From Clostridia bacterium (GTDB lineage Bacteria; Bacillota; Clostridia; Oscillospirales; CAG-272): 64,000 bases of DNA. The DNA lies in the NCBI GenBank assembly GCA_017451915.1, contig JAFTNJ010000031.1, positions 14,656 through 78,655 of the forward strand, written 5' to 3'. This document shows positions 1 to 15,655 of the stretch, piece by piece. The translations under genes and the position numbers were made by a program. The notes under the pieces were generated by a model. It saw only the letters and a program-made list of their open reading frames with translations, did no database searches and was not told where the DNA came from. The first letter of the stretch is position 1. Each line of letters starts with the position of its first letter.

Positions 1-395
1 ATCTGGAGATCCCCACTCACTACTACATGGATGGCGGCAAGACCGGTTCCTACACCGAGCTCTTCCGCAACCTGACCTATACCTTTGAGGTTGCCGAGAC
101 CGGTTGGTACGATATCTGCATTGATATGCGTATGAAGGCCGAGGGCACCAAGGAGACCAACTCCCGTAGCGCAATGATGATGATCGACTGGATGGGCGGC
201 GCGGATGCGTACTACCTGCACTTTGATATCGAGGGCGCAGGTGCTGTTAAGAACGCATCGGCAGGCTCTTATATGACCGGACTTTCGGTATACCTGGAGG
301 CCGGCGAGCACACCATTACCTTTGCGTGTGATTCCCGCATGGGCGGTAACTTCCACCTGCGTAACATCTACCTGGCAAAGGTTGTTGAGGAATAA
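1..395 (+). CDS. 3' end of a large secreted protein whose 5' end lies outside the window. The C-terminal ~120 aa form a CBM-like domain paralogous to the C-terminus of 979..4518.
   Basis: The frame is open from nt 3 with no upstream stop. It shares motifs with the 979..4518 C-terminus (F.V.E.GWYD, YL..G..T.T, H.R.IY..K). A terminator follows. Confidence 0.7.
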   Translation, partial: LEIPTHYYMDGGKTGSYTELFRNLTYTFEVAETGWYDICIDMRMKAEGTKETNSRSAMMMIDWMGGADAYYLHFDIEGAGAVKNASAGSYMTGLSVYLEAGEHTITFACDSRMGGNFHLRNIYLAKVVEE

Positions 396-406
396 AACAA
401 ATTTTT

Positions 407-438
407 GGGCGGTGTCCTTGGGGCACCGCCCTTTTTTG
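407..438 (+). terminator. Rho-independent terminator
   Basis: GGGCGGTGTCC/GGGCACCGCCC hairpin followed by a T6 run. Confidence 0.8.
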
Positions 439-789
439 TCCCTCGGTGTCGCTTTGCCCAAAAAAAAGGTTTGTTTTTGTGCATTGTTCACAAAACGAAA
501 CTCTTGTTTTTGATGAGGGTGTCAAAATAAAACAAATTAGGTTTATTTTGTGATACTTTGGTGTTGAAATTTGATAGTTATTTATTGGGATTTTGTATAT
601 AATATTGATATCTAACGGTTGCGATTTTTGGCGCGTTTTTGCACGTTTTTTGTTCCCCCCAAGCTTTTTTGGATAGGACCTGCGAGATTGTTGGGCTCGA
701 AGGTAGATGCAAAAGAGCAAAACGGAAAACGGGCAGAGCGGCAGGATCAAAACCGCTTGGAAAGCCAAGTAAGAAAGGAGTTGTAGTGC

Positions 790-936
790 TTGAGAAAAAC
801 TTACGAAGCACCCCTTTGCCAGCGGATCGAGGTATCCGAGGAAGACATTTTGACGGAATCCGACGGTTTTATCGGATTTGACAAAAACGACGATACCCCC
901 GGCAACTTTGAGGGTGGCGGGGTCATTCACTGGTAA
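790..936 (+). CDS. Unannotated small ORF of 48 aa with a TTG start: MRKTYEAPLCQRIEVSEEDILTESDGFIGFDKNDDTPGNFEGGGVIHW. Possible RiPP (lasso-like) precursor.
   Basis: AAGGAG at 775-780 lies 9 nt upstream of the TTG. There is an in-frame TAG at 784. Third codon positions are G/C-rich as in the real genes here. The ORF ends 43 nt before the GLUG gene and is below the ORF-track size cut-off. Confidence 0.45.
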   Translation: MRKTYEAPLCQRIEVSEEDILTESDGFIGFDKNDDTPGNFEGGGVIHW

Positions 937-978
937 AAAACTCCAAAAAACAAAATTCAGAAAGGAATTTACACAATC

Positions 979-3900: not shown

Positions 3901-4518
3901 ACCAACATTCCCAAGGAATATGCAGTATATGCAGGTGATCTTCAGGTATCCCTCATTCCTTACGGCGTAAGCAATAAGGTTACCGAGTTTGGTGTTACTA
4001 CCGTTCAGGGTGACATGGGCGGCTTTGTTGAGCTGGAAGACTCCGACTTTGGTAAGACCAAGCCCGAGGCTATTGATGATGCACAGATCCACATCTGGGC
4101 AGGCGATTACAACGTTGAAGAAACCGTTAAGCCCGCAACTGCTACCGCAACCGAGGTTTCCGGCGGTAAGAACGTTCGTCACTGGTACACCAACGCCAAC
4201 ACGGTTCTGGTTTACAACTTTACCGTTGAGGAAGAGGGCTGGTACGATGCTTACTTCTATCTGAGACTGAAGAACGAGTCTGTTCGTTCCAACCAGATCG
4301 TAATCAGCAACGGTGACACCACCGACATTTTCACCTTCTTCTACGTTGCCACCAGCACCCACACCGCTCTGAAGGATAGCACCAACGGTACTTACCTCTC
4401 CGAGGCATTTGAGATCTATCTCACTCCCGGTGATTACACCATGACCATCCTTCCCGGTTGGACCGGCGGCTCCAGCTCCGGATCTCTCCACTACAGAGAT
4501 ATCTACTTTGTAAAGTAA
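979..4518 (+). CDS. Giant secreted GLUG-repeat (beta-helix type) protein with a signal peptide and a C-terminal CBM-like domain
   Basis: The N-terminus MKKLTTIILLFAMVLSMLVPVGAAEG is a signal peptide. About 18 repeats are centred on GG[LIF][IF]G (GGLIG, GGIIG, GGFFG), each preceded by a [ND]C.[VF].G motif. No LPXTG or SLH anchor was seen. Confidence 0.8.
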   Translation: MKKLTTIILLFAMVLSMLVPVGAAEGAKLVMSGNNIANAQSVAAGVIGTVGAVGAGADETQFGTALGTGALKYDSSKGPDKKFWEDIRKTDATEIHITTAEQLFGWVKYRVADYTANGKDGLDTFEGVTIYLDVDVDLNGATWDAIHGDIIFKGNFNGQGHVVSNYKMTVGSWNKGFFGRVGGNATIQNLSLINVTYNFARKDKNNLNNLGILVSTAEPGTGNTLTIKNVYVNGVMTLTNDGVNKDNANHGIGGIIGIVSNGTVVMENCKFVGTISDTANTKGAVAQKTGGLIGTVSNPAVVNLTNCEVDATINAGGTRIGGLIGNLDTEKSVTIADCLVSGNIQSRITADSAFVGGLIGDASSTKCSHNVTNTKVKAEIQTAEKSTYAGGFFGQLRAKDATIDKCTFEGTVRTWTRCGGFSGYLQGTGKFTISNSSVNAVLKTGQGLVGGIAGNVNSSYADIEITNCSVAGEIQAPTDGAGGGYAAGGILCRIYNTSSKPIDVKIANCSVSMDINADAEPGGGIIGIVRTDASVIVNDLTVENCEYTGTLKSKNKAAGMIGTVGNLTGDFTLRGCSFEGVVDTTGAYGAGLIGQLDGTVAGDLIIDDCSVAGTIECKGSAGGLIGAVVKKITGTTTVDNCEVSATIISTGPHNGGFFGNVGGSTNGSGLTTVTNCEFTGYIKGTSNTGAFYGFISGSSKNDYVFKNCVSSGTVEGLRGSGGFLGYFSCDNVTLENIQVTGNLNLRADDSANAGNNSVGGVVGRFAGLTHATLKDVVFSGTLNATVAPVGSAATNAAHVGGLIGYVAAASSVVELEDCHVNAALHFAEDGKYAFVNNQGMAIFIGGAAESSSARVNVIYGQNVNYNLKALSNATGHDVKLVGDSVPSMGNTAVLGYQIKWNEDDTYDLRYIIGMKDVYDSIGVMAEIRYNYGEGVNVRYENVQVENVYKEVADGESNTYRAADFAMDYLYTLTITNIPKEYAVYAGDLQVSLIPYGVSNKVTEFGVTTVQGDMGGFVELEDSDFGKTKPEAIDDAQIHIWAGDYNVEETVKPATATATEVSGGKNVRHWYTNANTVLVYNFTVEEEGWYDAYFYLRLKNESVRSNQIVISNGDTTDIFTFFYVATSTHTALKDSTNGTYLSEAFEIYLTPGDYTMTILPGWTGGSSSGSLHYRDIYFVK

Positions 4519-4548
4519 TTAACTCAATTCCATATTGAGAACCCCAAA

Positions 4549-4585
4549 GGGGGCGGCGCGTGGCGCCGCCCCCGATGTTTTTATT
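4549..4585 (+). terminator. Rho-independent terminator
   Basis: GGGGGCGGCGC/GGCGCCGCCCCC hairpin followed by a T-run. Confidence 0.8.
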
Positions 4586-4611
4586 GAAGGGGAAGGGAGG
4601 TACAACAAAGC

Positions 4612-4653
4612 AACCGCCCTCTCTGTGGCGTGCACGGAGAGGGCGGTTTTTCT
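4612..4653 (-). terminator. Terminator of the ABC operon, possibly bidirectional
   Basis: AACCGCCCTCTC/GAGAGGGCGGTT hairpin lying 16 nt past the stop at 4669. Confidence 0.6.
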
Positions 4654-4668
4654 TGCTCTGTGGGGCGT

Positions 4669-6561
4669 TTAGATCTTGCCCTCTTGGAGCTGTTGCTTAT
4701 GGTACTGCAGGGTATAGAGCTGATAATAACGGCCTCTCTGCTGCAGGAGCTCCTGGTGGGTGCCCTGCTCCAGGATCCTTCCGTGGGAGAGGAGGATGAT
4801 ATTATCCGCGTGCTGAATGGTGGAGAGTCGGTGGGCAACCATAAGCATGGTGCCAATGTTCATCATCTTCTCCAGGGAGTCCTGAATGAGGATCTCGGTT
4901 TCGGTATCAATGTTTGCGGTGGCCTCGTCCAGGATCATCACCGAGGGCTTGTGGATGATGGTTCGTGCAAAGGAGAGGAGCTGACGCTGGCCTGCGGAGA
5001 AGTTGTTTCCGCGCTCGCGCACCACCTCGTCCAAGCCGCCGTCCAGCTTATTGATAAAGGAGTCGGCGTTAACGTAGCGGCAGGCCTCCATAATCTCCTT
5101 GTCGGAGATTCCCTCCTCCCGGAGGATGATGTTGGAGCGGATGGTTCCCGAGAAGAGGAACACGTCCTGGAGCATCTGACCAAAGTGGCGGCGCAGGGAA
5201 GAGATCTTGATCTTCTTAATGTCAATTCCGTCAATGAGGATCTGTCCCTTTTGAATATCGTAATTTCGGCAGATCAGGGAGAGGATGGTGGATTTTCCCG
5301 AGCCGGTGGCACCAACAAAGGCAACTGTCTCCTTGGGGGATACGTGGAAGGAAACGTCCTTGAGCACCCATTCGTCGGGGATGTAAGAGAACCACACGTT
5401 CTTGAACTCGATCTCGCCCTGGATCTCATCCAATTCCATCGCGTCGGGCTCGTCCACCACGGCGGGCTCCATATCAAACACGGTAAAGATCTTTTCGGCC
5501 GAGGCAAAGGCAGATTGGAGCCAGTTGAACTGCTCGGCAAGGCTTTGAATGGGGTTAAAGAACTTGGAAATGTACATATAGAAGGTGACCACGGTTCCGC
5601 TGGTGAGCACCTGTCCCATAAACTCGGTGTTCCGGATGTAGCCGCGACCTCCCAGATAGAGCAGGCAGAGCACCGAGGAGATATAGAGCATATACACCAC
5701 GGGGCGGAAGATGCCAAACACAAAGATCTGATCGCGCTTGGCCTTTCCCAGGGCGTTGCACTTCTCGCTAAACTCCTTCATCTTCTGCTCCTCGCGGTTA
5801 AAGATCTGGGTGATCTTAATGCCCGAGAGGTTTTCGGAAAGATAGGTGTTGATGTCGGTGGTGCCGTCCTTGACTTTGCGGTAGGCCTTGCGGGAGAACT
5901 TACGGAAGATGATGGTAAAGAGGATGATGAAGGGAACAAAGCAGAGCACCATCAAGGTGAGCTCGTAGTTCAAGCAGAACATGGCGATCAGAACGCCAAT
6001 GATCACAAAGCAGTTCTTGATCAGGTTGACCAGGATATTGGTGAACATCATGGAGATGGCGTTGGTATCGTTGGTCACACGGGTCACCAGCTTACCTACG
6101 GGGATCTGGTTGAGCTGCTCGTGGGAGAGGGACTCGATGTGGGTAAAGAGATCCAGGCGCATCTGGGATAGGATCTGCTGACCGGTCTTTTGCAGCACGA
6201 TGGCCTGGACGTAGGTGCAGATCAGAGAGAGGATCAGCATCCCCGCGTACACGGCAACGGCAACGTACAGGCGGGAGAGGGGGAAGTCGGACTTCACGGT
6301 CTCCTCGATGTAGCCAACGATCAAGGGGGACACGATATCGTAAGCAATGGAGGCCAGCATGATCACGCCGATAAAGGCGAAGCGCGTCCAGTAGGGCTTG
6401 AGATACTTCAGCAGTCGCCGTACGATCTCGCCGTCCTTCATATTGCGGTCAAAGCCAATGGCTTCCTTTTTGTTTTTCATCATGGCGTAGGCCAGGATAA
6501 AGCAGGTGGAAAGCAGTCCAACAACGGCTCCCACAATGAGCAACGGGTAAAATTCACGCAT
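4669..6561 (-). CDS. ABC exporter half-transporter (TMD-NBD), the subunit carrying the consensus ATPase site
   Basis: Walker A GATGSGKST, Walker B VMILDEATANID and signature FSAGQRQ. I place the start at ATG 6561 (MREFYPLL), which has a GGAGG RBS. It overlaps the upstream gene by 8 nt (ATGCGTGA). Confidence 0.85.
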   Translation of the reverse strand: MREFYPLLIVGAVVGLLSTCFILAYAMMKNKKEAIGFDRNMKDGEIVRRLLKYLKPYWTRFAFIGVIMLASIAYDIVSPLIVGYIEETVKSDFPLSRLYVAVAVYAGMLILSLICTYVQAIVLQKTGQQILSQMRLDLFTHIESLSHEQLNQIPVGKLVTRVTNDTNAISMMFTNILVNLIKNCFVIIGVLIAMFCLNYELTLMVLCFVPFIILFTIIFRKFSRKAYRKVKDGTTDINTYLSENLSGIKITQIFNREEQKMKEFSEKCNALGKAKRDQIFVFGIFRPVVYMLYISSVLCLLYLGGRGYIRNTEFMGQVLTSGTVVTFYMYISKFFNPIQSLAEQFNWLQSAFASAEKIFTVFDMEPAVVDEPDAMELDEIQGEIEFKNVWFSYIPDEWVLKDVSFHVSPKETVAFVGATGSGKSTILSLICRNYDIQKGQILIDGIDIKKIKISSLRRHFGQMLQDVFLFSGTIRSNIILREEGISDKEIMEACRYVNADSFINKLDGGLDEVVRERGNNFSAGQRQLLSFARTIIHKPSVMILDEATANIDTETEILIQDSLEKMMNIGTMLMVAHRLSTIQHADNIILLSHGRILEQGTHQELLQQRGRYYQLYTLQYHKQQLQEGKI

Positions 6562-8335
6562 TGTTATCTTCGCCTCCTTCGTCTTCCAGCTTTTGAAGAT
6601 CGACCATGCGACGGTAATCGAGGCAGGTTTCGTAGAGATGCTCATGAGTACCAACGGCAAGGAGCTTGCCATCGTCGATAAAGAGGATCTTGTCCATGCG
6701 TTCAATGGTAGAAACGCGGTGAGCAATCAGGATGGTGGTGCGTCCCTTGCGGGTGTTGCGGAGGTTTTCCAGGATCACCTTTTCGGTCTTGGTATCTACG
6801 GCCGATACCGAGTCGTCCAGGATCAGAATGGGGGCATCCTTCATCAAGGCGCGGGCAATGGAAATTCGTTGCTTTTGTCCGCCCGAGACGGTCACGCCAC
6901 GCTCGCCCAGCACGGTTTGGTAGCCTTCCTTAAACTCGGCAATGTTTCCGTGGACGTCGGCCAAGCGTGCAGAAGCCTCCACGGCGGCGGGGTCCGTTCT
7001 TCCGGAAAAGGCGATGTTGTTTTCAATGGTATCGCTGAACAAAAAGTTGTCCTGCGGAACGTAGGCCGAGGCCTCACGCACCTGGCGGATGGGAATGGTA
7101 TTGACGTCATATCCGTCAATAAAGATCGTACCGTCGGGAACGTTGTAGGTGCGCAGGATCAGATCCACCAGCGTGGTCTTTCCCGCACCGGTTTTTCCAA
7201 CCAGTCCCACGTTCTCTCCGGCCTCAATGGTAAAGGAGATGTGGGAGAGGGCGTCGTATTCGCCGTCGGGGTAGCGGAAGGTCAGATCGCGGAACTCGAT
7301 TCTCCCCTTCAGCTCGTTTGCGGGACGGACGTCGGGACGGTCAACCACGTCCTGCTCGGCGTCCAGAAGCTCGCTGATACGCTTGAGAGAGGCCTTGCCG
7401 CGGGAGGACATTTCAATGAGCTCCGAAACCGCCATGGCAGGCCAGATTACGGTGTTGAAGTAGCCGATGAACTCCACCAGCTGACCGGCGTTGAAATCGC
7501 CTCGCCAAACCAGGTAGCCGCCGTAGCCCAGGATCACACAAATGACCGATTCCACAAAGAGGGTAACGCAAATACGCATCAGCACCGAGATCTTGGTGTA
7601 GTCCACGTTGGCCTTTTCGTTTTGCTGATTCAGCTTTTTAAAGGCCAAGAGCTCCTTGGTTTCCTTTACAAAGGCTTTGATCACGGCAATGCCCGAGAAA
7701 CTTTCCTGGGAGAAATCCGAGAGATCCGAGAAGGCCGCCTGGCGAACATCCCACTTGCGCATCATGTGTTTTCCCACAACGATGGAGGCCACCAGAAGAC
7801 AGGCGATGGGGATCAGGGAAAGTCCCGTGAGCATGGCGTCCATTTTGAACATTTTAAACAGAGCCATGCCGCCAAGAAAGACGGCGTCGCAGAGCATCAA
7901 AATGCCCGAGCCAAAGCATTCCTGCACGGTATCCAGGTCATTGGTGTACAGAGACATGAGGTTACCAACCTTGTTGACCTGATAATACTGGCGGGAGAGA
8001 TCCTTGCTGTGGTTGAACATTCGGTTCCGCAGATCGGTCTCCACCTTGATGGCCGAGCCGAAAAAGCAGATTCGCCATAGAAAGCGTCCCACTACCAGGA
8101 TCAAGATAATAAAGATCATGGGGCGGCAGATGTGATCCAGAAGAAAATCCATATCAAACACGTACCATTGCCCGTCAGAGAAAACCATGCCGTCATTCAT
8201 CCCGTTGATGACCATTTGATACAGGTTCGGGATGGTGAGCTGGGCGTAGTCCACCAGGATCAACGCAACCAACCCCAAGAACAGTACGCCCGCATAGCGC
8301 AGGTAGTACCGATTCAGGTGTTTTCCAAATAGCAT
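6554..8335 (-). CDS. ABC exporter half-transporter (TMD-NBD), the subunit carrying the degenerate ATPase site
   Basis: Walker A GKTGAGKTT. Walker B is ILILDDSVSAVD, with Asp in place of the catalytic Glu. The signature is VSGGQKQR. An AGGAGGG RBS precedes the start. Confidence 0.85.
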   Translation of the reverse strand: MLFGKHLNRYYLRYAGVLFLGLVALILVDYAQLTIPNLYQMVINGMNDGMVFSDGQWYVFDMDFLLDHICRPMIFIILILVVGRFLWRICFFGSAIKVETDLRNRMFNHSKDLSRQYYQVNKVGNLMSLYTNDLDTVQECFGSGILMLCDAVFLGGMALFKMFKMDAMLTGLSLIPIACLLVASIVVGKHMMRKWDVRQAAFSDLSDFSQESFSGIAVIKAFVKETKELLAFKKLNQQNEKANVDYTKISVLMRICVTLFVESVICVILGYGGYLVWRGDFNAGQLVEFIGYFNTVIWPAMAVSELIEMSSRGKASLKRISELLDAEQDVVDRPDVRPANELKGRIEFRDLTFRYPDGEYDALSHISFTIEAGENVGLVGKTGAGKTTLVDLILRTYNVPDGTIFIDGYDVNTIPIRQVREASAYVPQDNFLFSDTIENNIAFSGRTDPAAVEASARLADVHGNIAEFKEGYQTVLGERGVTVSGGQKQRISIARALMKDAPILILDDSVSAVDTKTEKVILENLRNTRKGRTTILIAHRVSTIERMDKILFIDDGKLLAVGTHEHLYETCLDYRRMVDLQKLEDEGGEDNNA

Positions 8336-8370
8336 TCCTTATCCCTCCTTTGAGAAAACATACAAATATG

Positions 8371-8399
8371 ATTATACCATACTTTGTACGGTATGTCAA
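8371..8399 (-). promoter_or_regulatory. Sigma-A promoter of the ABC operon
   Basis: TTGACA-N17-(TGg)TATAAT. Confidence 0.7.
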
Positions 8400-8419
8400 T
8401 TCCTGTCGATGTTTTTTTC

Positions 8420-8459
8420 AAAGGAAACCGCCTTTTCGAAGAGAACCTCGAAAAGGCGG
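8420..8459 (-). terminator. Terminator after the EEP lipoprotein gene
   Basis: CCGCCTTTTCGA/TCGAAAAGGCGG hairpin followed by a T-rich tract. Confidence 0.7.
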
Positions 8460-8468
8460 TGGATGGAA

Positions 8469-9674
8469 TCAGGAATTGGGCTTGGCGGGGAATTGCAGAT
8501 CGGTCAGGATCGGGCAGTGATCGGAGGTGTAGATGGTCTTTTGAGTCCCGTCCACGGCGGTGATGGTGGCCTTGCCCGAGCAGGTGCGGTAGACCGCCAC
8601 GGTAAAGCCTTCCTTGGAAATGAAGATGTAGTCCAGCTTGTTGCCCCGCTTGGTTTCGTTGGGAGAGGGATAGTTGTCCCCTTGGGCGGCATCCTCAAAG
8701 GCCAGGTTCATGGAGCTCTGGGTGTAGCCAAAGCTCTTTTTGGCAACCAGGGAGGTATCGGTGTAGCTCTTTAAAACCTCTTTGTGAATATCCGAGTCGG
8801 GAATATCGTTGAAGTCTCCCGAGATCGTAACCAGCAGATCCTCGTAGTTGGACTCGATGATCGCGATCTGCTTTTGGATCAGGTGGAACTGCTTGATGCG
8901 CTCCAGGTTCCGCAGCTGTGTAAATGCCTTGGTGGCGTAGTCGGCGTTGGGGCTTCGATGCTGCAGGTGGGTATTGACGTAGAGCACGGGCTGTCCCTCA
9001 ATCTCAAATACGGCGTAGGTCATGCGACGCTTGTTGAGATACTGATAGCCGCCAGAGGACTGGAGTACACCGTCATCGTCGATGTAATTGCGACGGGTGG
9101 AGGTGAGAACCGTGTTTTGCATGGCGGAGGTCAACTGGAGTTGGGTCAGATATTCGGCCGAGAGCTGATAGGCGCCGTTTTCCTCAAACAGATCCCGGAT
9201 GGTCAGTGCCGCGCCGGGCTCTCCGGAGTCGGTGAGCCAAAAGCTACCGCTTTCCAGGAGCTTCATGTCGCTCTTATACCAAATGGAGCAGTTTTCGCCG
9301 GAGGCAATGGTGTTATCATAGAGAACGGTGTAGCCGTGCTCCTCAAGATCCAGTACGTCGATCCATGCGGGGGCATCCTCCTGCAGACCGAGTACGTCGG
9401 GATTGTGATTCAGGATCTCTTGGCGAATGGCGATGATGCGGTTTTTCGTTGCGTCGGTCAGGCTTCCGTCGCCGTTTTTCGCCATGGTGCCCCAGATATT
9501 AAAGCTCATTACGCGCAGGGTCGCGGTGGTGGGCTCCTCGGGGGTAGGATCGGCCGTGGTTTGCGCGGCCACTGTCGTACTGTTGGCAGGTGGGACGGGG
9601 GAGGGGGTGCAGGCGGTCAGCGCGGAGCACAGTAAGCATCCGCCAAGGAGGAGCGCGAGAAGTTTCTTCAGCAT
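8469..9674 (-). CDS. Endonuclease/exonuclease/phosphatase (EEP) family lipoprotein
   Basis: MLKKLLALLLGGCLLCSALTAC is a lipobox-type signal. EEP motifs are present: RVMSFNIWG, DVLGLQE, SDHCPI. The start is trimmed to ATG 9674. Confidence 0.8.
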   Translation of the reverse strand: MLKKLLALLLGGCLLCSALTACTPSPVPPANSTTVAAQTTADPTPEEPTTATLRVMSFNIWGTMAKNGDGSLTDATKNRIIAIRQEILNHNPDVLGLQEDAPAWIDVLDLEEHGYTVLYDNTIASGENCSIWYKSDMKLLESGSFWLTDSGEPGAALTIRDLFEENGAYQLSAEYLTQLQLTSAMQNTVLTSTRRNYIDDDGVLQSSGGYQYLNKRRMTYAVFEIEGQPVLYVNTHLQHRSPNADYATKAFTQLRNLERIKQFHLIQKQIAIIESNYEDLLVTISGDFNDIPDSDIHKEVLKSYTDTSLVAKKSFGYTQSSMNLAFEDAAQGDNYPSPNETKRGNKLDYIFISKEGFTVAVYRTCSGKATITAVDGTQKTIYTSDHCPILTDLQFPAKPNS

Positions 9675-9716
9675 AAGCAGATTCCTTTCGTTAGCGTTTT
9701 GAAAAATACTATCTTC

Positions 9717-9744
9717 ATTATACCACGGTTTTGGCGGATTGCAA
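9717..9744 (-). promoter_or_regulatory. Promoter of the EEP lipoprotein gene
   Basis: TTGCAA-N16-(TGg)TATAAT. Confidence 0.55.
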
Positions 9745-9852
9745 CTTTTTTTGGCGCATTTCTCCAAAAAGAGCAAGATAGCAATAAAAAGACAAAATAT
9801 TGCAAGTCTTGATCCTTGAAAGATTCTCCCACGGGCTTTTTTGAAAAAACTA

Positions 9853-9881
9853 TTGCAATTCCCGCGCAAATATGGTAGAAT
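9853..9881 (+). promoter_or_regulatory. Promoter of the HPrK-like/PqqD/peptidase operon
   Basis: TTGCAA-N17-(TGg)TAGAAT. Confidence 0.6.
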
Positions 9882-9915
9882 AAACGGGATCGGATGTGTG
9901 GAAAGGAGGAAGCAT

Positions 9916-10620
9916 ATGTTTATTATTCGTTTGGCAGGCGTTCGGATCCGCGTGGAGAATCGCTATTCCTTTTTGGAGCGTCAATGCCGCGAGTATGTTT
10001 GCTCGGGTGAGGAGTACGATTTTTCGGTGTCGGTTACCGGCGACGAGATCCTGGAGGAGCAAAAGCACGGCGAGTTTTCGGAAGGGTATTGCGAGAGCAT
10101 TTGTATGTATCGGAATATTTGTGAGAAGATCGCCGCGTACAATATCTTTCTTCTACATTCCTCCGTGCTGGAGGTGGACGGCCGTGCCTATGCCTTTGCC
10201 GCGCGGAGCGGCGTGGGCAAATCCACCCATACCGCCCTTTGGCTCAAGAACATTCCCGGAGCACGGGTGCTCAATGGAGACAAGCCCTTGTACCGTCTGG
10301 AGGCGGACGGCAGCTTTACGGTGCACGGCACCCCCTGGAACGGCAAAGAGGATTGGGGCATGAACCTTTCGGCCCCTGTGGCGGGCATCTGCTTTTTGGA
10401 GCGGGGAGAGAAGAACGCCATTCGTCCCGCCACGCCCGAGGAAACCCTGAACCGCCTGATGCACCAGCTCTATTTGCGCGGCGGACGGGCATCGGTTAAT
10501 CAACGCTTGATCATGATGAACGCCATGCTGGAGAGCCTGCCCTTTTACGTGCTGTCCTGCACCATTTCGGACGAGGCGGCTCATCTTGCGTATAACACCA
10601 TGCGCTTACAATCGAATTAA
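9916..10620 (+). CDS. P-loop protein resembling the HPr-kinase-related kinases that accompany PqqD-type RREs
   Basis: The P-loop is ARSGVGKSTH. An AAGGAGGA RBS precedes ATG 9916. It is the first gene of a tightly packed operon with the PqqD-like gene. Confidence 0.45.
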   Translation: MFIIRLAGVRIRVENRYSFLERQCREYVCSGEEYDFSVSVTGDEILEEQKHGEFSEGYCESICMYRNICEKIAAYNIFLLHSSVLEVDGRAYAFAARSGVGKSTHTALWLKNIPGARVLNGDKPLYRLEADGSFTVHGTPWNGKEDWGMNLSAPVAGICFLERGEKNAIRPATPEETLNRLMHQLYLRGGRASVNQRLIMMNAMLESLPFYVLSCTISDEAAHLAYNTMRLQSN

Positions 10621-10635
10621 AAGGAGGATACGATC

Positions 10636-10902
10636 ATGAGAATCAATCCGGATTTTACTATTCAAAAGGTGGGAGCGTCCTACTTGGCGGTTCCCGTTGG
10701 AGAGACCAGCAAGCAGTTTCACGGAATGATCCGTTTGAATGAAACGGGTGCCTTTCTTTGGAATCAAATGACCGAGAAGGACTGCACCGAGGCCGATCTG
10801 GTAGAGGCACTGTTGCAGGAATACGAGGTTGAGCCGGCCGTTGCCAAGACCGACGTTCACCGTGTGGTAGAGCTGCTGAAGGAGCATCACTGCCTGGTAT
10901 GA
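10636..10902 (+). CDS. PqqD-family protein (RiPP recognition element / peptide chaperone)
   Basis: 88 aa with a typical PqqD pattern (LNETGAFLWNQM...EADLVEALLQEYEV...AKTDVHRVVELLKEH). An AAGGAGG RBS precedes it. Confidence 0.8.
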   Translation: MRINPDFTIQKVGASYLAVPVGETSKQFHGMIRLNETGAFLWNQMTEKDCTEADLVEALLQEYEVEPAVAKTDVHRVVELLKEHHCLV

Positions 10903-11345
10903 GCATCAGTATTGAGGAGCAGCTGCGGCAGGAAGGGGTCTATGTGAGTACCACGTCGGGGGTGAGTATGTGGCCCATGCTCCGCAACCGACGGGATCGG
11001 GTGATCCTGCGTGCCAAGGGGGAGGAACGGCTCAAGCGTTGGGATCTGCCCCTGTACCGGTATCCCGACGGTCGCTACGTGCTGCATCGCGTGATTGCCG
11101 TAAAGGACGGCTACTACGTGATCCGCGGGGACAATACCTATTCCAAGGAGAAGATCCCCGAGGAGTGGATTTTAGGCGTGGTGACCGAGTTTTATCGTGG
11201 GGAGAGGCACGTGATGGCCAATGCCCGCGGGTATCGCTTTTATGCCGCCCTGTGGCAGAGCATCTACCCGTTGCGCTATCCCTTGCATATGGCCAGATGT
11301 CTGGCATCCCGGATCAAGCACCGCTTGTGGAAAAAGAAGAAATAA
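10899..11345 (+). CDS. S24/S26-family (signal-peptidase/LexA-like) serine peptidase. It is a soluble form with His at the general-base position.
   Basis: GVSMWPML Ser motif, YVLHRVIAV, and an RGDN box. No N-terminal TM segment is present. Its start overlaps the PqqD stop by ATGA. Confidence 0.7.
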   Translation: MSISIEEQLRQEGVYVSTTSGVSMWPMLRNRRDRVILRAKGEERLKRWDLPLYRYPDGRYVLHRVIAVKDGYYVIRGDNTYSKEKIPEEWILGVVTEFYRGERHVMANARGYRFYAALWQSIYPLRYPLHMARCLASRIKHRLWKKKK

Positions 11346-11408
11346 AAAGGAAGTTGGGCGTCAGGCCTGCACCCGTGGTGCGCGCCGATTCCAATTTCCT
11401 TTTTGTGT
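11346..11408 (+). terminator. Long-loop hairpin plus T-run between the peptidase and M48 genes. It could be a terminator or an attenuator.
   Basis: AAAGGAAGTTGG...CCAATTTCCTTT stem followed by TTTTGTGTT. Confidence 0.4.
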
Positions 11409-11428
11409 TGGGAAAGGAGTTGTGACGA

Positions 11429-11992
11429 ATGGAATATCAGGTGATCTACAGTCGGCGTCGCACGCTGGCGCTGGAGATTGGAGCCAAGGGACTTTTGGTG
11501 CGTGCTCCTTACGGCACCGAAGCGTCGGCGGTGGAGCGGTTTGTAGAGGCGCATCGGGGCTGGATCGAAAAGCATCTGGCCGTACGGAACCGCCGCGCCG
11601 CGGAGCAAAAGGAAATCCCGCCCCTGACCCGTGAGGAGCTGACTGCCTTGGCCGAGGAGGCGGCAAGGATCCTGCCCGCCCGCGTAGCGCATTACGCCGC
11701 GCAGATCGGCGTGAGCTACGGAAGGATCACCGTGCGCAGTCAGCGCACCAAATGGGGCAGTTGTTCGGCCAAGGGGAATTTGAATTTTAACTGCCTGCTC
11801 CTGCTGGCACCGCCCCAGGTGTTGGATTGCATTGTGGTGCACGAGCTTTGTCACCGAAAGGAAATGAATCACTCTCCCCGGTTTTATCGGGAGGTTTATC
11901 GGGTTTATCCCGCTTATGACCAATGGAACCGATGGTTAAAGGAGAACGGCTTTCGCCTCCTTGCCCGCCTGCCCCAAAAAGAGCCCGAATGA
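11429..11992 (+). CDS. YgjP-like (DUF45/M48 family) zinc metallopeptidase
   Basis: HELCHRKEMNHSPRF (HExxH) motif. A GAAAGGAG RBS precedes it. Confidence 0.8.
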   Translation: MEYQVIYSRRRTLALEIGAKGLLVRAPYGTEASAVERFVEAHRGWIEKHLAVRNRRAAEQKEIPPLTREELTALAEEAARILPARVAHYAAQIGVSYGRITVRSQRTKWGSCSAKGNLNFNCLLLLAPPQVLDCIVVHELCHRKEMNHSPRFYREVYRVYPAYDQWNRWLKENGFRLLARLPQKEPE

Positions 11993-12013
11993 AGCTTCAT
12001 TCGGGCTCTTTTT
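11975..12013. terminator. Bidirectional terminator between convergent genes
   Basis: 28-nt perfect palindrome GAGCCCGAATGAAG/CTTCATTCGGGCTC flanked by A- and T-runs. Confidence 0.8.
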
Positions 12014-12017
12014 GCAT

Positions 12018-12728
12018 TTATTTGAAATAATAGAGAAAGCTCATATCGCACGCGGCGTATTCCTCGGGGGTCAGCCATTTGTCATTGGAATCGTCAAAAT
12101 CTTTTTCGGCTTCGTTGTAATAGGACACCGAGTAGCAGTAGAGATTGGTTTCGGAGTAGAAGGTGATGGAGGCGCGGGTTTCGGGAACCAGGGCTCCGTC
12201 CTCGGTCCAGAGATACTTGGTGGTGGTATCGGTGGTAATGGTGGCGGCCTGAACGTCGGCGTACTCCTTGTCCTGCTGGAAGCTGTGGGTAAAGGCAAAC
12301 ACGGCCTTCAGCTTTTCGTCGGTTTGAATATTGCACAGCCCCGTAAGAGCCTTCGATGCCACGTAGTCACCGCTTTCGGGATCCTTGAGCCAACAGAGAT
12401 AGGAGCGACAGTCACCGGCAACGCCGTCCACGATCATCACGTCCAGATGTCCGTCAAAGTTTAGATCCAATACCTGAAGCCCGTAGGTGCCTCGCAGACT
12501 TCCCACCTTGCGGTCCACGCGGACCGTCGTGGTCCAGAGCAGGGCATCGCCCTGCTTGATCACCAGCTGCTTGGCCCGTGTTCCCGAGCCGCGAACACAA
12601 TAGGTGACGCCGTCTACCTCCGTGGAGTAGAGCAGGTCGTGCCGCTCGCCGCCGCAGGAGGCGAGCAGGGGCAGGAGCAGGATGGCGGAGAGAAGAAACA
12701 AAAGGATTCGATATTTCATAACTTCCAT
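12018..12728 (-). CDS. Hypothetical lipoprotein
   Basis: The signal peptide carries an LLASCGG lipobox. An alternative start is ATG 12719. Confidence 0.65.
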   Translation of the reverse strand: MEVMKYRILLFLLSAILLLPLLASCGGERHDLLYSTEVDGVTYCVRGSGTRAKQLVIKQGDALLWTTTVRVDRKVGSLRGTYGLQVLDLNFDGHLDVMIVDGVAGDCRSYLCWLKDPESGDYVASKALTGLCNIQTDEKLKAVFAFTHSFQQDKEYADVQAATITTDTTTKYLWTEDGALVPETRASITFYSETNLYCYSVSYYNEAEKDFDDSNDKWLTPEEYAACDMSFLYYFK

Positions 12729-12745
12729 ACCTTTCGGTGTTTGTG

Positions 12746-13099
12746 AGGTGCAGCTCCGTCTGTAAGCCGGGTTCTGTCAAGGGCGGTCATCAATCTGCGC
12801 ATGCCGTCACCGGAATGCTTCGGGATCACTCCCGTGCCACCTCGGAACATATGCCGGACCAGCGTTCCCTGGGGTGTTGCTTCGGATAGGGTTTACAGCG
12901 GACCTATGTTACCATAGGAACTGGTGAGCTCTTACCTCGCCTTTCCATCCTTACCGATTGCTCGGCGGTTTATTTCTGTTGCACTTTCCCGACGGTTACC
13001 CGTGGCTGACGTTATCAGCTATCCTGTCCTGTGAAGCCCGGACTTTCCTCACGGTAATACCTTTCGGCACCATACCGCGCGATCGCCCAACGAAGCTGC
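12746..13099 (-). ncRNA. rnpB: RNase P RNA
   Basis: Conserved GAGGAAAGUCCGGGC (reverse complement of 13036-13050) and ACAGAACCCGGCUUA (reverse complement of 12762-12777). The P1 helix pairs GCAGCUUCGU with ACGGAGCUGC. A consensus promoter lies 7 nt upstream. Confidence 0.9.
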
Positions 13100-13105
13100 G
13101 GCTTT

Positions 13106-13134
13106 ATTATACCGCATTTTGCGTCTTTTGTCAA
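13106..13134 (-). promoter_or_regulatory. rnpB promoter
   Basis: TTGACA-N17-TATAAT. Confidence 0.8.
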
Positions 13135-13144
13135 GAGCGGGACA

Positions 13145-13175
13145 GAAAAAGCCGCCCGCAAGGCTTGCGGGCGGC
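13145..13175 (-). terminator. Terminator of the thiT operon
   Basis: GCCGCCCGCAA/TTGCGGGCGGC hairpin followed by T5. Confidence 0.85.
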
Positions 13176-13186
13176 AGGGGAAGCGT

Positions 13187-13384
13187 TTACTTGGATTGGT
13201 CGGTAGGGACCTTGGGATAAAAGGTGGCAAAATATTTGGCAATGGGGGTGCTGAAATACCAGATGCAGGAAATCAACATTCCGCCAAGACCCACCCACAC
13301 CAGCTCCGAGCCGGCCACCAACGCGCATCCCGCAAGGATCGCGCCGGAGATCAGAAGGGAGCAGAAAAACAGGGGGCTTTTCAT
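13187..13384 (-). CDS. 65-aa predicted two-TM membrane protein, translationally coupled to thiT
   Basis: Sequence MKSPLFFCSLLISGAILAGCALVAGSELVWVGLGGMLISCIWYFSTPIAKYFATFYPKVPTDQSK. Its start overlaps the thiT stop by ATGA. A terminator lies 12 nt after its stop. Confidence 0.6.
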   Translation of the reverse strand: MKSPLFFCSLLISGAILAGCALVAGSELVWVGLGGMLISCIWYFSTPIAKYFATFYPKVPTDQSK

Positions 13385-13992
13385 TCCGGATCCCCCTCTT
13401 TGACGGTGGGAACCTGGGCAATGATGCGTTTGACCTGAGGCACCTTTAAGAGAATGGCCGCCATGACGGTGGTCAGAACCGTTTCGGGGAGCATATAAAT
13501 GCCGTTGTAGCAGATCGAATAGAGCACGGGGCGGTTGATCCATTCCTGTCCAAAGGCAACGAACTCCTCCAGATTGGCCCAAAGAACCACGCCGGCCACA
13601 AAATGCACCAGGAAGCGGAGCACGCAGACCATGGCCACACCGGCCACCATGCCAAGGTATCCCTTTTTGCGAAAGAGTCCGGCCAATCCCAGCACGGTAA
13701 AGGCCAGGATGTAGTCCAAAAAGAGGGAGGCGATCAGCATCCCGGGGGTCAGCCCCCAGGCAAAGACGCCGCCCTGCAGGATCTGGAACCAGGAGTAGCA
13801 AAAGGCGGTACCCAGTCCCCATTTCAGCCCGTATTTGATGGACACCAGGCAGATGGGGAGCATGGAAAAGAGGGTGATGGATCCGTCAAAGGGAAGCTGC
13901 CAGAACTTGATGTAGCTTAGTACCACGGCCAGAGCCAGCATCAGGGCACATTCACAAAGCGCAATGATCCTCGACAATCGTGTTTTTAACAT
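13381..13992 (-). CDS. thiT: Thiamine transporter ThiT (ECF S-component, YuaJ-like)
   Basis: A multi-TM protein lying downstream of a TPP riboswitch. AGGAGGTG RBS precedes the ATG at 13992. Confidence 0.8.
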   Translation of the reverse strand: MLKTRLSRIIALCECALMLALAVVLSYIKFWQLPFDGSITLFSMLPICLVSIKYGLKWGLGTAFCYSWFQILQGGVFAWGLTPGMLIASLFLDYILAFTVLGLAGLFRKKGYLGMVAGVAMVCVLRFLVHFVAGVVLWANLEEFVAFGQEWINRPVLYSICYNGIYMLPETVLTTVMAAILLKVPQVKRIIAQVPTVKEGDPE

Positions 13993-14005
13993 AAAAACAC
14001 CTCCT

Positions 14006-14045
14006 AAAATAGAAATTGACCGCACGAAATCTCCGTGCGGTCAAT
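14006..14045 (-). terminator. Riboswitch expression-platform terminator
   Basis: ATTGACCGCACG/CGTGCGGTCAAT hairpin followed by UUCUAUUUU, immediately before the RBS. Confidence 0.75.
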
Positions 14046-14098
14046 TCGCTATGACGAGGAAAAAAGCGTCGACTTTCTTTTTTCGTCCATCTATGGAA

Positions 14099-14186
14099 AT
14101 CTCCCTACGCCGGTATTATCCGTATCAGGTAAAAGGGTTCGGCGTACGCCATCTCAGCCCTCCGTTGCAGGAGAGCACCCCCGATT
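14099..14186 (-). promoter_or_regulatory. TPP (THI-box) riboswitch aptamer
   Basis: GGGGUGC...CUGAGA...ACCUGAUACGGAUAAUACCGGCGUAGGGA. Confidence 0.9.
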
Positions 14187-14203
14187 TTATGCGGTTCGAT
14201 GGT

Positions 14204-14232
14204 ATTATAGCACAGGATCTCCCGTTTGTCAA
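14204..14232 (-). promoter_or_regulatory. Promoter of the TPP riboswitch and thiT
   Basis: TTGACA-N17-(TGc)TATAAT. Confidence 0.8.
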
Positions 14233-14243
14233 GAGGCTTGGAA

Positions 14244-14285
14244 AGAAAAAAAGAGCACGGGAAGAAGATTCTTCCCATGCTCTTT
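14244..14285 (-). terminator. Terminator after the PPIase gene
   Basis: AAGAGCATGGGAAGA/TCTTCCCGTGCTCTT hairpin followed by T7. Confidence 0.8.
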
Positions 14286-14299
14286 TGGGGGACGGGGGA

Positions 14300-15655
14300 T
14301 CAATAATAGAAGTTGATGCCCACGGTCAGCATATCGGGCGTGTCGACCCAAACCTTTTCGTTTATCTTGATGTCACCGTAGTAGGATTGGCAGAGCTCCA
14401 GGAAAAGGGAATCGATGAGGTTGGTGTTAAAGTCCTCAAACCAAGCGGTATTTTCTTCCTTTTCATAGGCTTTTTCGGAGTGGGGATATTTTTTGATCAC
14501 GTGGAAGCCGTAGGTGGAGGATACCAGGGTGACGTCGCCGTCCTCCATGGTGGCAAGAGCCTTAATGATGTCGTCCAGATACTCGTAATCCTCTCCCGAG
14601 GCCGAATAATCCAGGCCGGATTTGAGATAGTAGCCGTCCAGGTACTCGTTGGGAGTGCCCATGGCATCGTTTTCCTCGGTCATGATCTTTTCAAAGTCCT
14701 CGTAGGTGGAGCCCTTGAGGGTAGTGTTCAGGGCCTCGGCCTTCAGGGTCAGCTCCTTCAGCTCGTCCTCGGTCAAAAATTCGGTCTTGTAGGATTTCCC
14801 GTCCTCCTCCATGACGTGGGAGGGGATGCCGTTGACGCTGTCGTAGGCAATGGTCTTGAACTGGCCGTCGTTCACAAAGTAAACGGTATCGCCGTTGGCG
14901 TCGGTGATGGGGGTGCCGTCCTCCTTGGTCCCGGGAACGCCGTTGCCGCTGTCGTAGCAGATGTGCCCCTTCTGGGAGCTTTCCTCATCGTAGTAGTAAA
15001 TGGTGTCACCGTTTTTGTCGGTTTCATAGACGTAGTTGTACTTGGGGAGGAAGATCTGATGGAAGTGCACGTAATTCTCGGCCAGATACTCGTCCTTGAC
15101 GTTGGAGCCGATCAGGGAGGCGTTCTTGCCGTACAGATGGAGCTGGAGCGCCGAGATCTTTTCCTGCATCAGGTAGATCCCCTCCAGAATATCGTAGTTC
15201 ACGCCGTAGGCGGACAGGAGGGAGTTGAGCTTGGTTTTGGAGCCGTCGCCGTCGGTGCGGATCAGCTCATCCATCAGGTCGGCCACGTTTTCGTAGGCCT
15301 CCTCGGTCAGCTCCAGCCCCTCGGCTTCAAAAAGGTAGAGGGCCACCAGGTAGTTGCGGCAGTTGTTCAGTACGCTGTCCTTGTAGAACTCATTCAGGGT
15401 CTGAAAATTGGTGCCGTCGTATTTGTCCTTTTGATTCCAAAAGCTTTGGTCGTTGACCTGATACTGATACTGGGAAAGGGTTCCCTTGATGCGGCTGAGC
15501 ATCAGCTCGTATTCGTTGGCCGAGAAGGTGACCGAAATGCCATCCTTACTCATGGAGAGCAGGGTTTTGCCTCTTCCGGAGCAGGCGCACAGGCAGGTGA
15601 GTGCCATCACGGCGACCAGGAGCAACGCAAGGAGGCGGCGGGTGTAGGATTTCAT
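14300..15655 (-). CDS. PrsA/SurA-like peptidyl-prolyl isomerase lipoprotein (PpiC/parvulin type)
   Basis: Lipobox LCACSG. The parvulin-like motif GFHVIKKY is present. Its position downstream of mfd is typical for Clostridia. Confidence 0.7.
   Translation of the reverse strand: MKSYTRRLLALLLVAVMALTCLCACSGRGKTLLSMSKDGISVTFSANEYELMLSRIKGTLSQYQYQVNDQSFWNQKDKYDGTNFQTLNEFYKDSVLNNCRNYLVALYLFEAEGLELTEEAYENVADLMDELIRTDGDGSKTKLNSLLSAYGVNYDILEGIYLMQEKISALQLHLYGKNASLIGSNVKDEYLAENYVHFHQIFLPKYNYVYETDKNGDTIYYYDEESSQKGHICYDSGNGVPGTKEDGTPITDANGDTVYFVNDGQFKTIAYDSVNGIPSHVMEEDGKSYKTEFLTEDELKELTLKAEALNTTLKGSTYEDFEKIMTEENDAMGTPNEYLDGYYLKSGLDYSASGEDYEYLDDIIKALATMEDGDVTLVSSTYGFHVIKKYPHSEKAYEKEENTAWFEDFNTNLIDSLFLELCQSYYGDIKINEKVWVDTPDMLTVGINFYY

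Follow-up and report, generated by a model that had tools for sequence, protein, structure and literature searches.

A conserved trio of HprK-like, PqqD-type and S24/S26-fold protein genes as a probable peptide-maturation cassette of gut and rumen bacteria

Three tightly packed genes in the genome of a Clostridia bacterium (GTDB lineage Bacteria; Bacillota; Clostridia; Oscillospirales; CAG-272; assembly GCA_017451915.1) raise the question of what a RiPP recognition element (RRE; RiPP, a peptide made by the ribosome and modified after translation) might do beside a kinase-like protein and a peptidase when no core-modifying enzyme accompanies them. The genes, ORF1 to ORF3, lie in a 64,000-nucleotide (nt) stretch of contig JAFTNJ010000031.1 (positions 14,656 to 78,655 of the forward strand), which we refer to as the window and number from its first letter. 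Comparison with related loci indicates that the trio forms a conserved, hitherto uncharacterised peptide-maturation cassette of gut and rumen bacteria. We propose, with a probability of about 0.62, that it is the core of a leader-dependent RiPP-type pathway of RRE-guided phosphorylation, leader removal and export, and as such a cyclase-less relative of the phosphorylated lasso peptide pathways. The features of the trio, with protein lengths in amino acids (aa), are as follows.

9853..9881, plus strand: promoter-like site TTGCAA-17-TAGAAT upstream of ORF1, recognised by consensus match only
9916..10620, plus strand: ORF1, 234 aa, predicted HprK/PEPCK-fold P-loop protein, with an ATG start 7 nt downstream of AGGAGG
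10636..10902, plus strand: ORF2, 88 aa, predicted PqqD-family RRE, perhaps lasso-B1-like
10899..11345, plus strand: ORF3, 148 aa, predicted soluble S24/S26-fold peptidase

An initial annotation of this DNA had described the trio as packed behind one promoter and as lacking any core-modifying enzyme in the window. The layout is as it stated: the 15-nt gap between ORF1 and ORF2 contains an AAGGAGG ribosome-binding site, the ORF2 stop codon overlaps the ORF3 ATG (ATGA), and the promoter-like site begins at 9853. The absence of core-modifying enzymes also stands, in that there is no CxxxCxxC (radical SAM) or SGGxDS (Asn-synthetase PP-loop) motif in the called ORFs of the window, and no radical SAM, YcaO or lasso-cyclase (asparagine-synthase) domain in the 25 window genes scanned with Pfam. 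These 25 are housekeeping or transport genes or are without a match, and the profile-library scans covered this part of the window's genes.

A conserved three-gene cassette

A genome scan with one genome per species yielded 40 loci, including 31 close loci (L001–L031) with an ORF1 59–88% identical to that of the window. The order ORF1-ORF2-ORF3 is intact in all 22 close loci that have sufficient flanking DNA, well beyond what chance would give. The flanks of the trio are unrelated among the close loci, with synteny to the window only in L001, its nearest relative. We ran Pfam on 123 genes that flank the trio in 28 related loci and found housekeeping families (PG_binding_1, S1, SDH_alpha and ABC_tran being the most frequent) and no recurrent RiPP enzyme, lasso cyclase and B2 included; in L032, with 38% identity, the trio is flanked by ksgA/spoIVA-type genes and by brkB/NUDIX genes. 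Dozens of species keep the trio with uninterrupted reading frames and unvarying catalytic-type residues. When the window is compared with L001, the ratio of nonsynonymous to synonymous substitution (dN/dS) is 0.10 for ORF1, 0.07 for ORF2 and 0.12 for ORF3, and the trio genes are under purifying selection.

More distant relatives came from a metagenome scan with a 20-sequence subset of the ORF1 family, for which 80 loci were fetched with homologues 34–48% identical to the query representative. Both partners are present beside the HprK-like gene in 24 of the 37 evaluable loci, in the orders K-P-S (16 loci), S-P-K (6) and P-K-S (2), where K, P and S are the HprK-like, PqqD and S24 genes, and a fourth order, K-S-P, occurs in a Prevotella, on a replicon the size of a chromosome. 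There are also natural fusion proteins in which the HprK-like domain is combined with a PqqD, S24, PF14907 nucleotidyltransferase, radical SAM or Tyr-phosphatase domain. The gene set is constant while its order is permuted, and together with the fusions this is strong evidence of functional linkage. Two of the conditions under which the initial annotation would have fallen were thus decided in its favour: the trio is kept as a unit, and lasso or radical SAM clusters are not its general setting. Loci L036, L037 and L039 have a variant architecture without the S24 peptidase, made up, in this order, of a protein of ~210–234 aa, a peptide that starts MKKYTKPT..VVEL.V.ESLS.LP, a 300-aa HprK-like protein and an SLH-domain surface protein.

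Several other genes recur in the distant loci, namely an ATP-binding cassette (ABC) exporter (23 loci), a PF14907 nucleotidyltransferase (22–26 loci) and a radical SAM enzyme (~12 of 80). None of the three has a profile match in the window or in L001–L039, generic ABC exporters excepted. The one cassette-linked exporter that was scanned with Pfam lacks a C39 protease domain and most of the others, at ~570–630 aa, are too short for one, leaving ORF3 as the sole protease of the set.

The trio of Butyrivibrio fibrisolvens D1 pNP243 (186–200 kb; L121/L122) lies ~10 kb from a true lasso set that comprises B2, an asparagine-synthase-related gene, nucleotidyltransferases and a PqqD chaperone. The annotated order there is a hypothetical protein (HprK-like), a 57-aa hypothetical protein (Cys-rich and starting MKKAYVKPEL...), a 'PqqD family protein' and an 'S24/S26 family peptidase', and the surroundings also include glycosyltransferases and a two-component system. 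A rumen survey described Butyrivibrio lasso clusters with a nucleotidyltransferase, HPr kinase, GT2, sensor kinase and response regulator, and classed many of the clusters that it found as incomplete (PMC7533575); these gene kinds match those around the pNP243 trio. Because of this neighbourhood and the gene kinds in common, the cassette looks like an evolutionary offshoot of lasso machinery. The term 'orphan' used in the initial annotation thus fits the window's clade, and does not fit the distant relatives, with their exporter, PF14907 and sometimes radical SAM genes, or the Butyrivibrio locus with its lasso neighbour.

ORF1, whose start Met coincides with the alignment start of its homologues, is on its predicted structure an HprK/PEPCK-like P-loop enzyme of a separate sequence family. 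Its AlphaFold2 model (predicted local distance difference test score, pLDDT, 93.9; predicted template-modelling score, pTM, 0.90) has ATP-PEPCK and HprK/P as its top Foldseek matches in PDB (E 3e-6 to 1e-4, probability 1.0), and residues H81, G99, G101, K102, D122 and G143 are invariant among 125 relatives that are 32–47% identical, in agreement with the kinase-like character first ascribed to it. The family has the conserved motifs A-x-S-G-T/V-G-K-S/T-T-H, N-G-D-K-P and G-T-P-W-x-G-K. An HprK/P-type Walker A with an upstream His and a downstream Asp is found in ORF1 as S98-G-V-G-K102-S-T, H81 and D122. We take H81, K102 and D122 to be the equivalents of His140, Lys161 and Asp179 of Lactobacillus casei HprK/P, with its His-(~21)-Lys-(~18–20)-Asp spacing, an equivalence drawn from this spacing rather than from a computed superposition.

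At the level of sequence profiles ORF1 is remote from named families. It has no match at E<=0.1 in our local Pfam copy, where the Hpr_kinase_C (PF07475) gathering score is not reached, and a fused relative scores 18.9 bits against that model (cut-off 33.3). Its weak NCBIfam matches are to ScmC (23.8 bits, cut-off 125) and HprK_rel_A (22.5 bits, cut-off 200). A sequence-only PDB search with ORF1 gave nothing useful, and the family profile retrieved mostly generic ABC-protein P-loops, with HprK and PEPCK marginal. The homologues are named 'hypothetical protein' in their sources and are assigned by precomputed annotation to Pfam PF27840, a family absent from the local copy; the HprK-like proteins comprise 7,600 clusters (50% identity) at E<=1e-3 and 573 at E<=1e-30. 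A homologue from Eubacterium barkeri (P0394; UniRef A0A1H3EKF3) is named 'SynChlorMet cassette protein ScmC' in UniProt, a name that looks over-annotated in view of the score of ORF1 against that model. In P0308 (565 aa) the HprK-like domain is naturally fused to a Y_phosphatase3 tyrosine-phosphatase domain, which hints at reversible phosphoryl chemistry in the family.

ORF2 matches Pfam PqqD (PF05402) with 63.4 bits (gathering cut-off 23.4, E=2.5e-17), and its best NCBIfam matches are lasso PqqD chaperone models (30 and 27.6 bits, below the cut-offs of 70 and 80). A search of PDB sequences gave a single match, TfuB1 (6jx3, E=0.002), a lasso B1 protein and the closest relative with a solved structure. 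Judged by these matches ORF2 is a PqqD-type RRE, as originally described, and perhaps of the lasso-B1-like kind.

The ORF3 model (pLDDT 85.9) matches SpsB (E=1e-3), LexA, UmuD', the lambda cI C-terminal domain and SipA in Foldseek, and S23 (in G-x-S-M-x-P-M), H63-R64 and R76-G-D-N79 are invariant among 59 sequences; catalytic roles, including that of His63 as general base, were assigned from motif order and position. Signal peptidases of the endoplasmic reticulum (ER)/archaeal type are Ser/His enzymes with the motif order Ser-Met, His-Arg, Gly-Asp-Asn, and the same order in ORF3 agrees with its weak match to TIGR02228 (archaeal-type signal peptidase I), the other weak NCBIfam match being to TIGR02754 (NiSOD maturation protease; 21.6 and 22.6 bits, respectively, against cut-offs of 51.85 and 63.25). 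ORF3 has no Pfam match, as the Peptidase_S24/S26 cut-offs are not reached; a fused relative passes Peptidase_S24 (29.2 bits, cut-off 23.3), and NCBI names the ORF3 relatives 'S24/S26 family peptidase'. There is no membrane segment or anchor in ORF3, and no DNA-binding domain by Pfam or in the model, in which the C-terminus is a basic helical hairpin. The fold, the invariant motifs and the lack of a membrane segment are those expected of the soluble S24/S26 peptidase that had been proposed. Matches of ORF3 to BLIP-II in a sequence-only PDB search were dismissed as repeat noise.

Precursor peptides and a proposed pathway

A motif scan showed that small ORFs with ribosome-binding sites adjoin many of the cassettes (e.g. 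MLKYETPEIEIILFKDEDVITTS-GELIEDFEID and MKEKYLAPETEIVIFESEDVITAS-GDIDGDIE), and a leader hidden Markov model (HMM) applied to the fetched loci collected 39 small ORFs with a common leader from 35 sources. These were chosen by the HMM, and an invariant Asp and an invariant Ser were seen afterwards in all of them. All but one (38/39) are on the cassette strand, often directly upstream of the HprK-like or radical SAM gene, and one locus has an array of five. The consensus leader of the family is K-x-Y-E-x-P-E-M-E-I-V-x-F-x-x-E-D-V-I-T-T-S. Numbered backward from the invariant Ser at -1 (39/39), it has Tyr -20 (36/39), Pro -17 (23/39) and Asp -6 (39/39), with Glu -16, Glu -14, Phe -10, Glu -7, Val -5, Ile -4, Thr -3 and Thr -2 as further consensus residues. 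The cores that follow are 6–41 aa long, hypervariable and acidic, with Asp or Glu in every one (mean ~4) and almost no Lys or Arg; the first core residue is most often Gly (18/39), and none of the 39 ends in Ser. Core Cys follows the presence of a radical SAM gene in the locus, being found in 10 of 10 peptides with such a gene versus 0 of 29 without (Fisher p=1.6e-9). No NCBIfam model matched in a scan of ten of the precursor peptides. In one subgroup (L058, L059, L061, L064 and L065) a lipoprotein of 80–118 aa is encoded within the cassette, between the precursor gene and the S24 gene; its body is acidic and of low complexity, and its C-terminus carries the conserved motif EDSWEDSADGWD.

The window has a candidate precursor of this kind at some distance from the trio, immediately followed by a large gene.

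790..936, plus strand: probable precursor peptide, 48 aa, with a TTG start 9 nt past AGGAG; leader MRKTYEAPLCQRIEVSEEDILTES, core DGFIGFDKNDDTPGNFEGGGVIHW
979..4518, plus strand: giant secreted protein with GLUG repeats, encoded 43 nt past the precursor gene

We consider 790..936, which the initial annotation had put forward as a precursor, to be probably a divergent member of the cassette-linked family. It is conserved in L001, with an in-frame core indel, and a similar ORF lies ~500 nt upstream of the trio in L006. When the window and L001 peptides were left out of the leader HMM, 790..936 ranked first of 1,888 six-frame window segments. In the reciprocal search, with an HMM of the window, L001 and L006 peptides, the next ~25 matches were almost exclusively cassette-linked peptides. 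A word-based search with the 48-aa peptide recovered only itself and the L001 copy, and it took the motif scan and the leader HMM to bring the family to light. The earlier proposal is therefore strengthened by the adjacency of the family to cassettes elsewhere and by the reciprocal HMM, and is weakened by the E value in the leave-out search given below. In the 5′ untranslated region of the precursor ORF (640..790) DNA identity to L001 is ~92%, synonymous-site differences in the trio being pS ~0.5. This region contains a hairpin, CTTGGAAAGCCAAG, just upstream of the precursor ribosome-binding site; it has no Rfam match and the region may be a regulatory RNA element.

The giant protein encoded at 979..4518 may be associated with the trio system. 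In at least 11 loci besides the window the precursor gene is the immediate neighbour of a gene for a giant secreted repeat protein of 700–1650 aa, and in most such loci the peptide gene begins 15–225 nt past the stop codon of the giant gene. The giants have Sec signal peptides of the ordinary kind, and among their domains are GLUG, beta-helix, InlB B-repeat, F5/8 type C and Big_2. Giants stand beside the precursor or cassette in L006, L047, L053, L055, L058, L084, L085, L093, L099, L106, L113 and L115, and in the window at 27..395 and 979..4518. A single domain common to all of these neighbours was considered and rejected, as they differ widely in Pfam content; several have a C-terminal region in common, and the two window copies share a C-terminal domain of another kind.

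In the pathway that we propose, the ORF2 RRE would bind the conserved leader of the small precursor (790..936 being the window copy) and hand the precursor to ORF1, which would move a phosphoryl group from a nucleotide onto the peptide, most likely onto the invariant Ser at the leader/core junction. The RRE would also hand the precursor to ORF3, a predicted Ser/His peptidase that would cut off the leader at or next to the junction Ser, and the short acidic product would then be exported, perhaps via the neighbouring ABC pair. The junction Ser is the best candidate acceptor because one third of the cores are without hydroxyl residues. Ser -1 is never Ala or Gly, which argues for a chemical role beyond that of a small P1 residue, and the HprK-like-phosphatase fusion also points to phosphoryl chemistry.

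Two registers of cleavage may be envisaged. Cleavage could occur after the junction Ser, and S26 enzymes favour a small P1 residue, which fits this register. Alternatively it could occur three residues earlier, giving Tyr -17, Pro -14, a hydrophobic residue at -12 and Val -2; this is the lasso register, including its Ile/Val(-2) variant, and the invariant Ser becomes core residue 3, the target position of BsfK. There are precedents for these steps in lasso systems. The RRE BsfB1 both speeds the HprK-like kinase BsfK, acting on Ser3, and assists the leader peptidase (PMC10368454), PadeK and PsmK phosphorylate the linear precursor at its C-terminal Ser, and in pseudomycoidin a nucleotidyltransferase decorates the phosphate (PMC8498205).

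Several observations weigh against this pathway. ORF1 is under the cut-off of every curated HprK-related model, and P-loop proteins of this fold could be ATPases or phosphorylases rather than kinases. In 9 of the 37 evaluable distant loci the HprK-like gene has neither partner nearby. Downstream of the junction Ser, as many as 13 of the 39 cores are devoid of Ser, Thr and Tyr, and a core hydroxyl therefore cannot be the universal phosphate acceptor. As for the precursor, the leave-out HMM gives 790..936 only 6.7 bits (E=0.62), unrelated genes fill the 9 kb between this ORF and the trio, and, the window itself not counted, just two of the 31 close loci, L001 and L006, have a precursor in the fetched flanks. 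In the window's clade precursors seem usually to be unlinked from the trio.

Alternative explanations

The acidity of the cores invites a different chemistry, in which ORF1 would activate a carboxylate of the core (in the side chain of Asp or Glu, or at the C-terminus) as an acyl phosphate that, after leader removal, would drive cyclase-independent formation of a macrolactam or imide, or ligation of an amine. The presence of Asp or Glu in all cores, the near absence of Lys and Arg, the 13 hydroxyl-free cores and the prevalence of Gly as first core residue would all suit such a scheme, as would the derivation of the pathway from lasso-type components, yet without a cyclase. To our knowledge, however, no enzyme of this fold makes peptide acyl phosphates, and an acidic residue at core positions 7–9 is expected by chance in cores so rich in acids. 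The invariant junction Ser provides a universal hydroxyl, and the characterised HprK-type RiPP kinases all target Ser hydroxyls (PMC8498205, PMC10368454). We regard acyl-phosphate formation as unlikely. A wider proposal, which we would call doubtful, is that the cassette defines a new RiPP class, widespread in gut, rumen and oral anaerobes, in which the HprK/PEPCK-fold enzyme does the class-defining chemistry on short, hydroxyl-poor and highly acidic peptides. Carboxylates could be activated as acyl phosphates in place of a lasso cyclase, or phosphorylation of the junction Ser could be mechanistically coupled to the S26-like cleavage, and the product might act in concert with the giant surface proteins whose genes neighbour those of the precursors.

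Two further explanations dispense with the peptide product. The cassette might process or regulate a cellular protein, such as the adjoining giant secreted repeat proteins, or it might be a LexA-like self-cleaving switch under phosphorylation control, the small ORFs being incidental in both cases. S24 enzymes are classically self-cleaving, the giants are immediate neighbours of the small ORF in at least 12 loci, the window among them, and a precursor was not seen near most of the close relatives. Yet the small ORFs have a conserved leader, hypervariable cores, tandem arrays and covariation with radical SAM genes, and they lie directly upstream of the cassette in many loci without a giant gene; the giants have ordinary Sec signal peptides and heterogeneous domains, and ORF3, at 148 aa, has no DNA-binding domain by Pfam or model. 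We accordingly find a cellular target quite unlikely. That the trio is a functionless, decayed remnant of a lasso or radical SAM cluster might be suggested by the radical SAM enzyme in ~12 of the 80 related cassettes and by the B. fibrisolvens trio within ~10 kb of a complete lasso set, but it is extremely improbable. Across dozens of species the frames are unbroken and the catalytic-type residues do not vary, and the trio stands alone in all 22 evaluable close loci, with no recurrent RiPP enzyme among the 123 flanking genes. We reject decay because of the conservation of the unit, the dN/dS values of 0.07–0.12, the permuted orders in which the set is nonetheless kept, and the fusions.

Related systems and neighbouring genes

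Kinase-containing, RRE-dependent peptide maturation is of a known type, and it is the core composition that is new and the precursor family that is undescribed. As in the paeninodin (PadeK/B1/B2/C/D), Bsf (BsfK/B1/B2/C) and pseudomycoidin (PsmK/PsmN) systems, the cassette combines an HprK-fold protein with a discrete PqqD-type RRE and a predicted leader peptidase; the phosphorylated lasso pathways and the cassette relatives also have in common an ABC exporter, often a nucleotidyltransferase, and a leader with an aromatic-x-x-Pro motif. In contrast to those pathways, neither an Asn-synthetase-like cyclase nor a transglutaminase-like B2 appears among the 25 Pfam-scanned genes of the window, the S24/S26-fold peptidase being present instead, and the cassette cores are short, acidic, often hydroxyl-free and never end in Ser. 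ORF1 also differs from the phosphorylated-lasso kinases as a separate sequence family below the Hpr_kinase_C threshold.

HprK/P itself phosphorylates Ser46 of HPr and is a protein of ~310 aa with an N-terminal domain, whereas ORF1 has 234 aa and its gene context is an RRE and a peptidase rather than phosphotransferase system (PTS) genes. An HprK-like P-loop protein is likewise paired with a PqqD-family protein in the HPr-rel-A (TIGR04352/TIGR04355) and SynChlorMet (ScmC/ScmD) systems, but ORF1 is far under the cut-offs of these models and the trio has an S24/S26 peptidase; the two SPASM radical SAM enzymes of the SynChlorMet (SCM) cassette and the second kinase of HPr-rel-A are both absent here. 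ORF3 shares its fold, and the order of its Ser-Met, His-Arg and Gly-Asp-Asn motifs, with Sec11, SipW (S26B) and SodX. SodX is soluble and of the S26 type and removes a short N-terminal propeptide, which makes it a precedent for ORF3. ORF3 differs from the S26B signal peptidases in lacking a membrane anchor, in being encoded with an RRE and in scoring below the curated cut-offs. Cassette relatives with Cys cores resemble ranthipeptide/sactipeptide clusters in that a CxxxCxxC radical SAM gene is always alongside; unlike such clusters, the window and its clade have no radical SAM gene and their cores no Cys. A literature search, with subscription journals outside its reach, found nothing on the trio or its leader, and the names PF27840, PF14907 and HPr-rel-A/SynChlorMet likewise led to nothing.

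Other features of the window near the trio, together with a more distant gene of the same family as one of them, are listed here.

4669..8335, minus strand: two ABC exporter genes (longest ORFs 4669..6726 and 6554..8335), identified by Pfam, without a C39 peptidase domain
8469..9674, minus strand: lipoprotein-type endonuclease/exonuclease/phosphatase-family protein
11429..11992, plus strand: YgjP-like metallopeptidase-domain gene, 84 nt past ORF3
11975..12014, plus strand: terminator-like hairpin with an 18-bp stem, covering the last codons of the YgjP-like gene and running beyond its stop
12747..13098, minus strand: RNase P RNA, class A (234 bits)
14085..14192, minus strand: TPP riboswitch (76 bits)
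32379..34388, plus strand: second lipoprotein-type endonuclease/exonuclease/phosphatase-family protein

The initial annotation had pointed to an exporter pair within 9 kb of the trio. The two ABC genes are indeed there and are perhaps candidates for exporting its product, but what links them to the trio is proximity alone, because they are just 24–32% identical to the cassette-linked exporters. This is the generic level among exporters, and orthology to the cassette-linked exporter is unsupported. The site at 11975..12014, at the 3′ end of the YgjP-like gene, is the first and only consensus terminator-like site downstream of the trio, and as none precedes it the YgjP-like gene is possibly co-transcribed with ORF1–ORF3. 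Among the close loci this gene is conserved solely in L001, and L106 encodes a homologue of 49% identity a few kb downstream of its cassette, where it may be a coincidence or an accessory protease; its place in the trio system is doubtful.

The 8469..9674 gene diverges from the trio promoter and is kept in L001 only. A role for it and for the 32379..34388 gene as extracellular phosphatases acting on a phosphopeptide is conceivable but unsupported. In an Rfam scan of 1..14500 no known RNA element turned up close to the trio or to the precursor ORF. Spurious listed ORFs run across the RNase P RNA, and the TPP riboswitch lies upstream of a ThiT/YuaJ-type thiamine transporter gene (13381..14025).

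The cassette has PqqD, HprK-like, nucleotidyltransferase and ABC genes of the kinds used to recognise lasso clusters, and in Butyrivibrio it adjoins one, so that mining tools may score such clusters as incomplete lasso clusters. Experimental handles are available in the precursor family, with its invariant Asp and Ser, and in the predicted catalytic residues, which can be mutated; cultured hosts include Butyrivibrio fibrisolvens D1 and Prevotella sp. oral taxon 299 F0039, as well as Eubacterium barkeri for the kinase-like gene. The family is large, spans human-gut and rumen Clostridia and reaches Prevotella. RRE-guided peptide kinases have so far been known only as accessory lasso tailoring enzymes, and here the kinase-like enzyme would join an RRE and an unusual protease, soluble and signal-peptidase-like, in forming the conserved core of a separate pathway.

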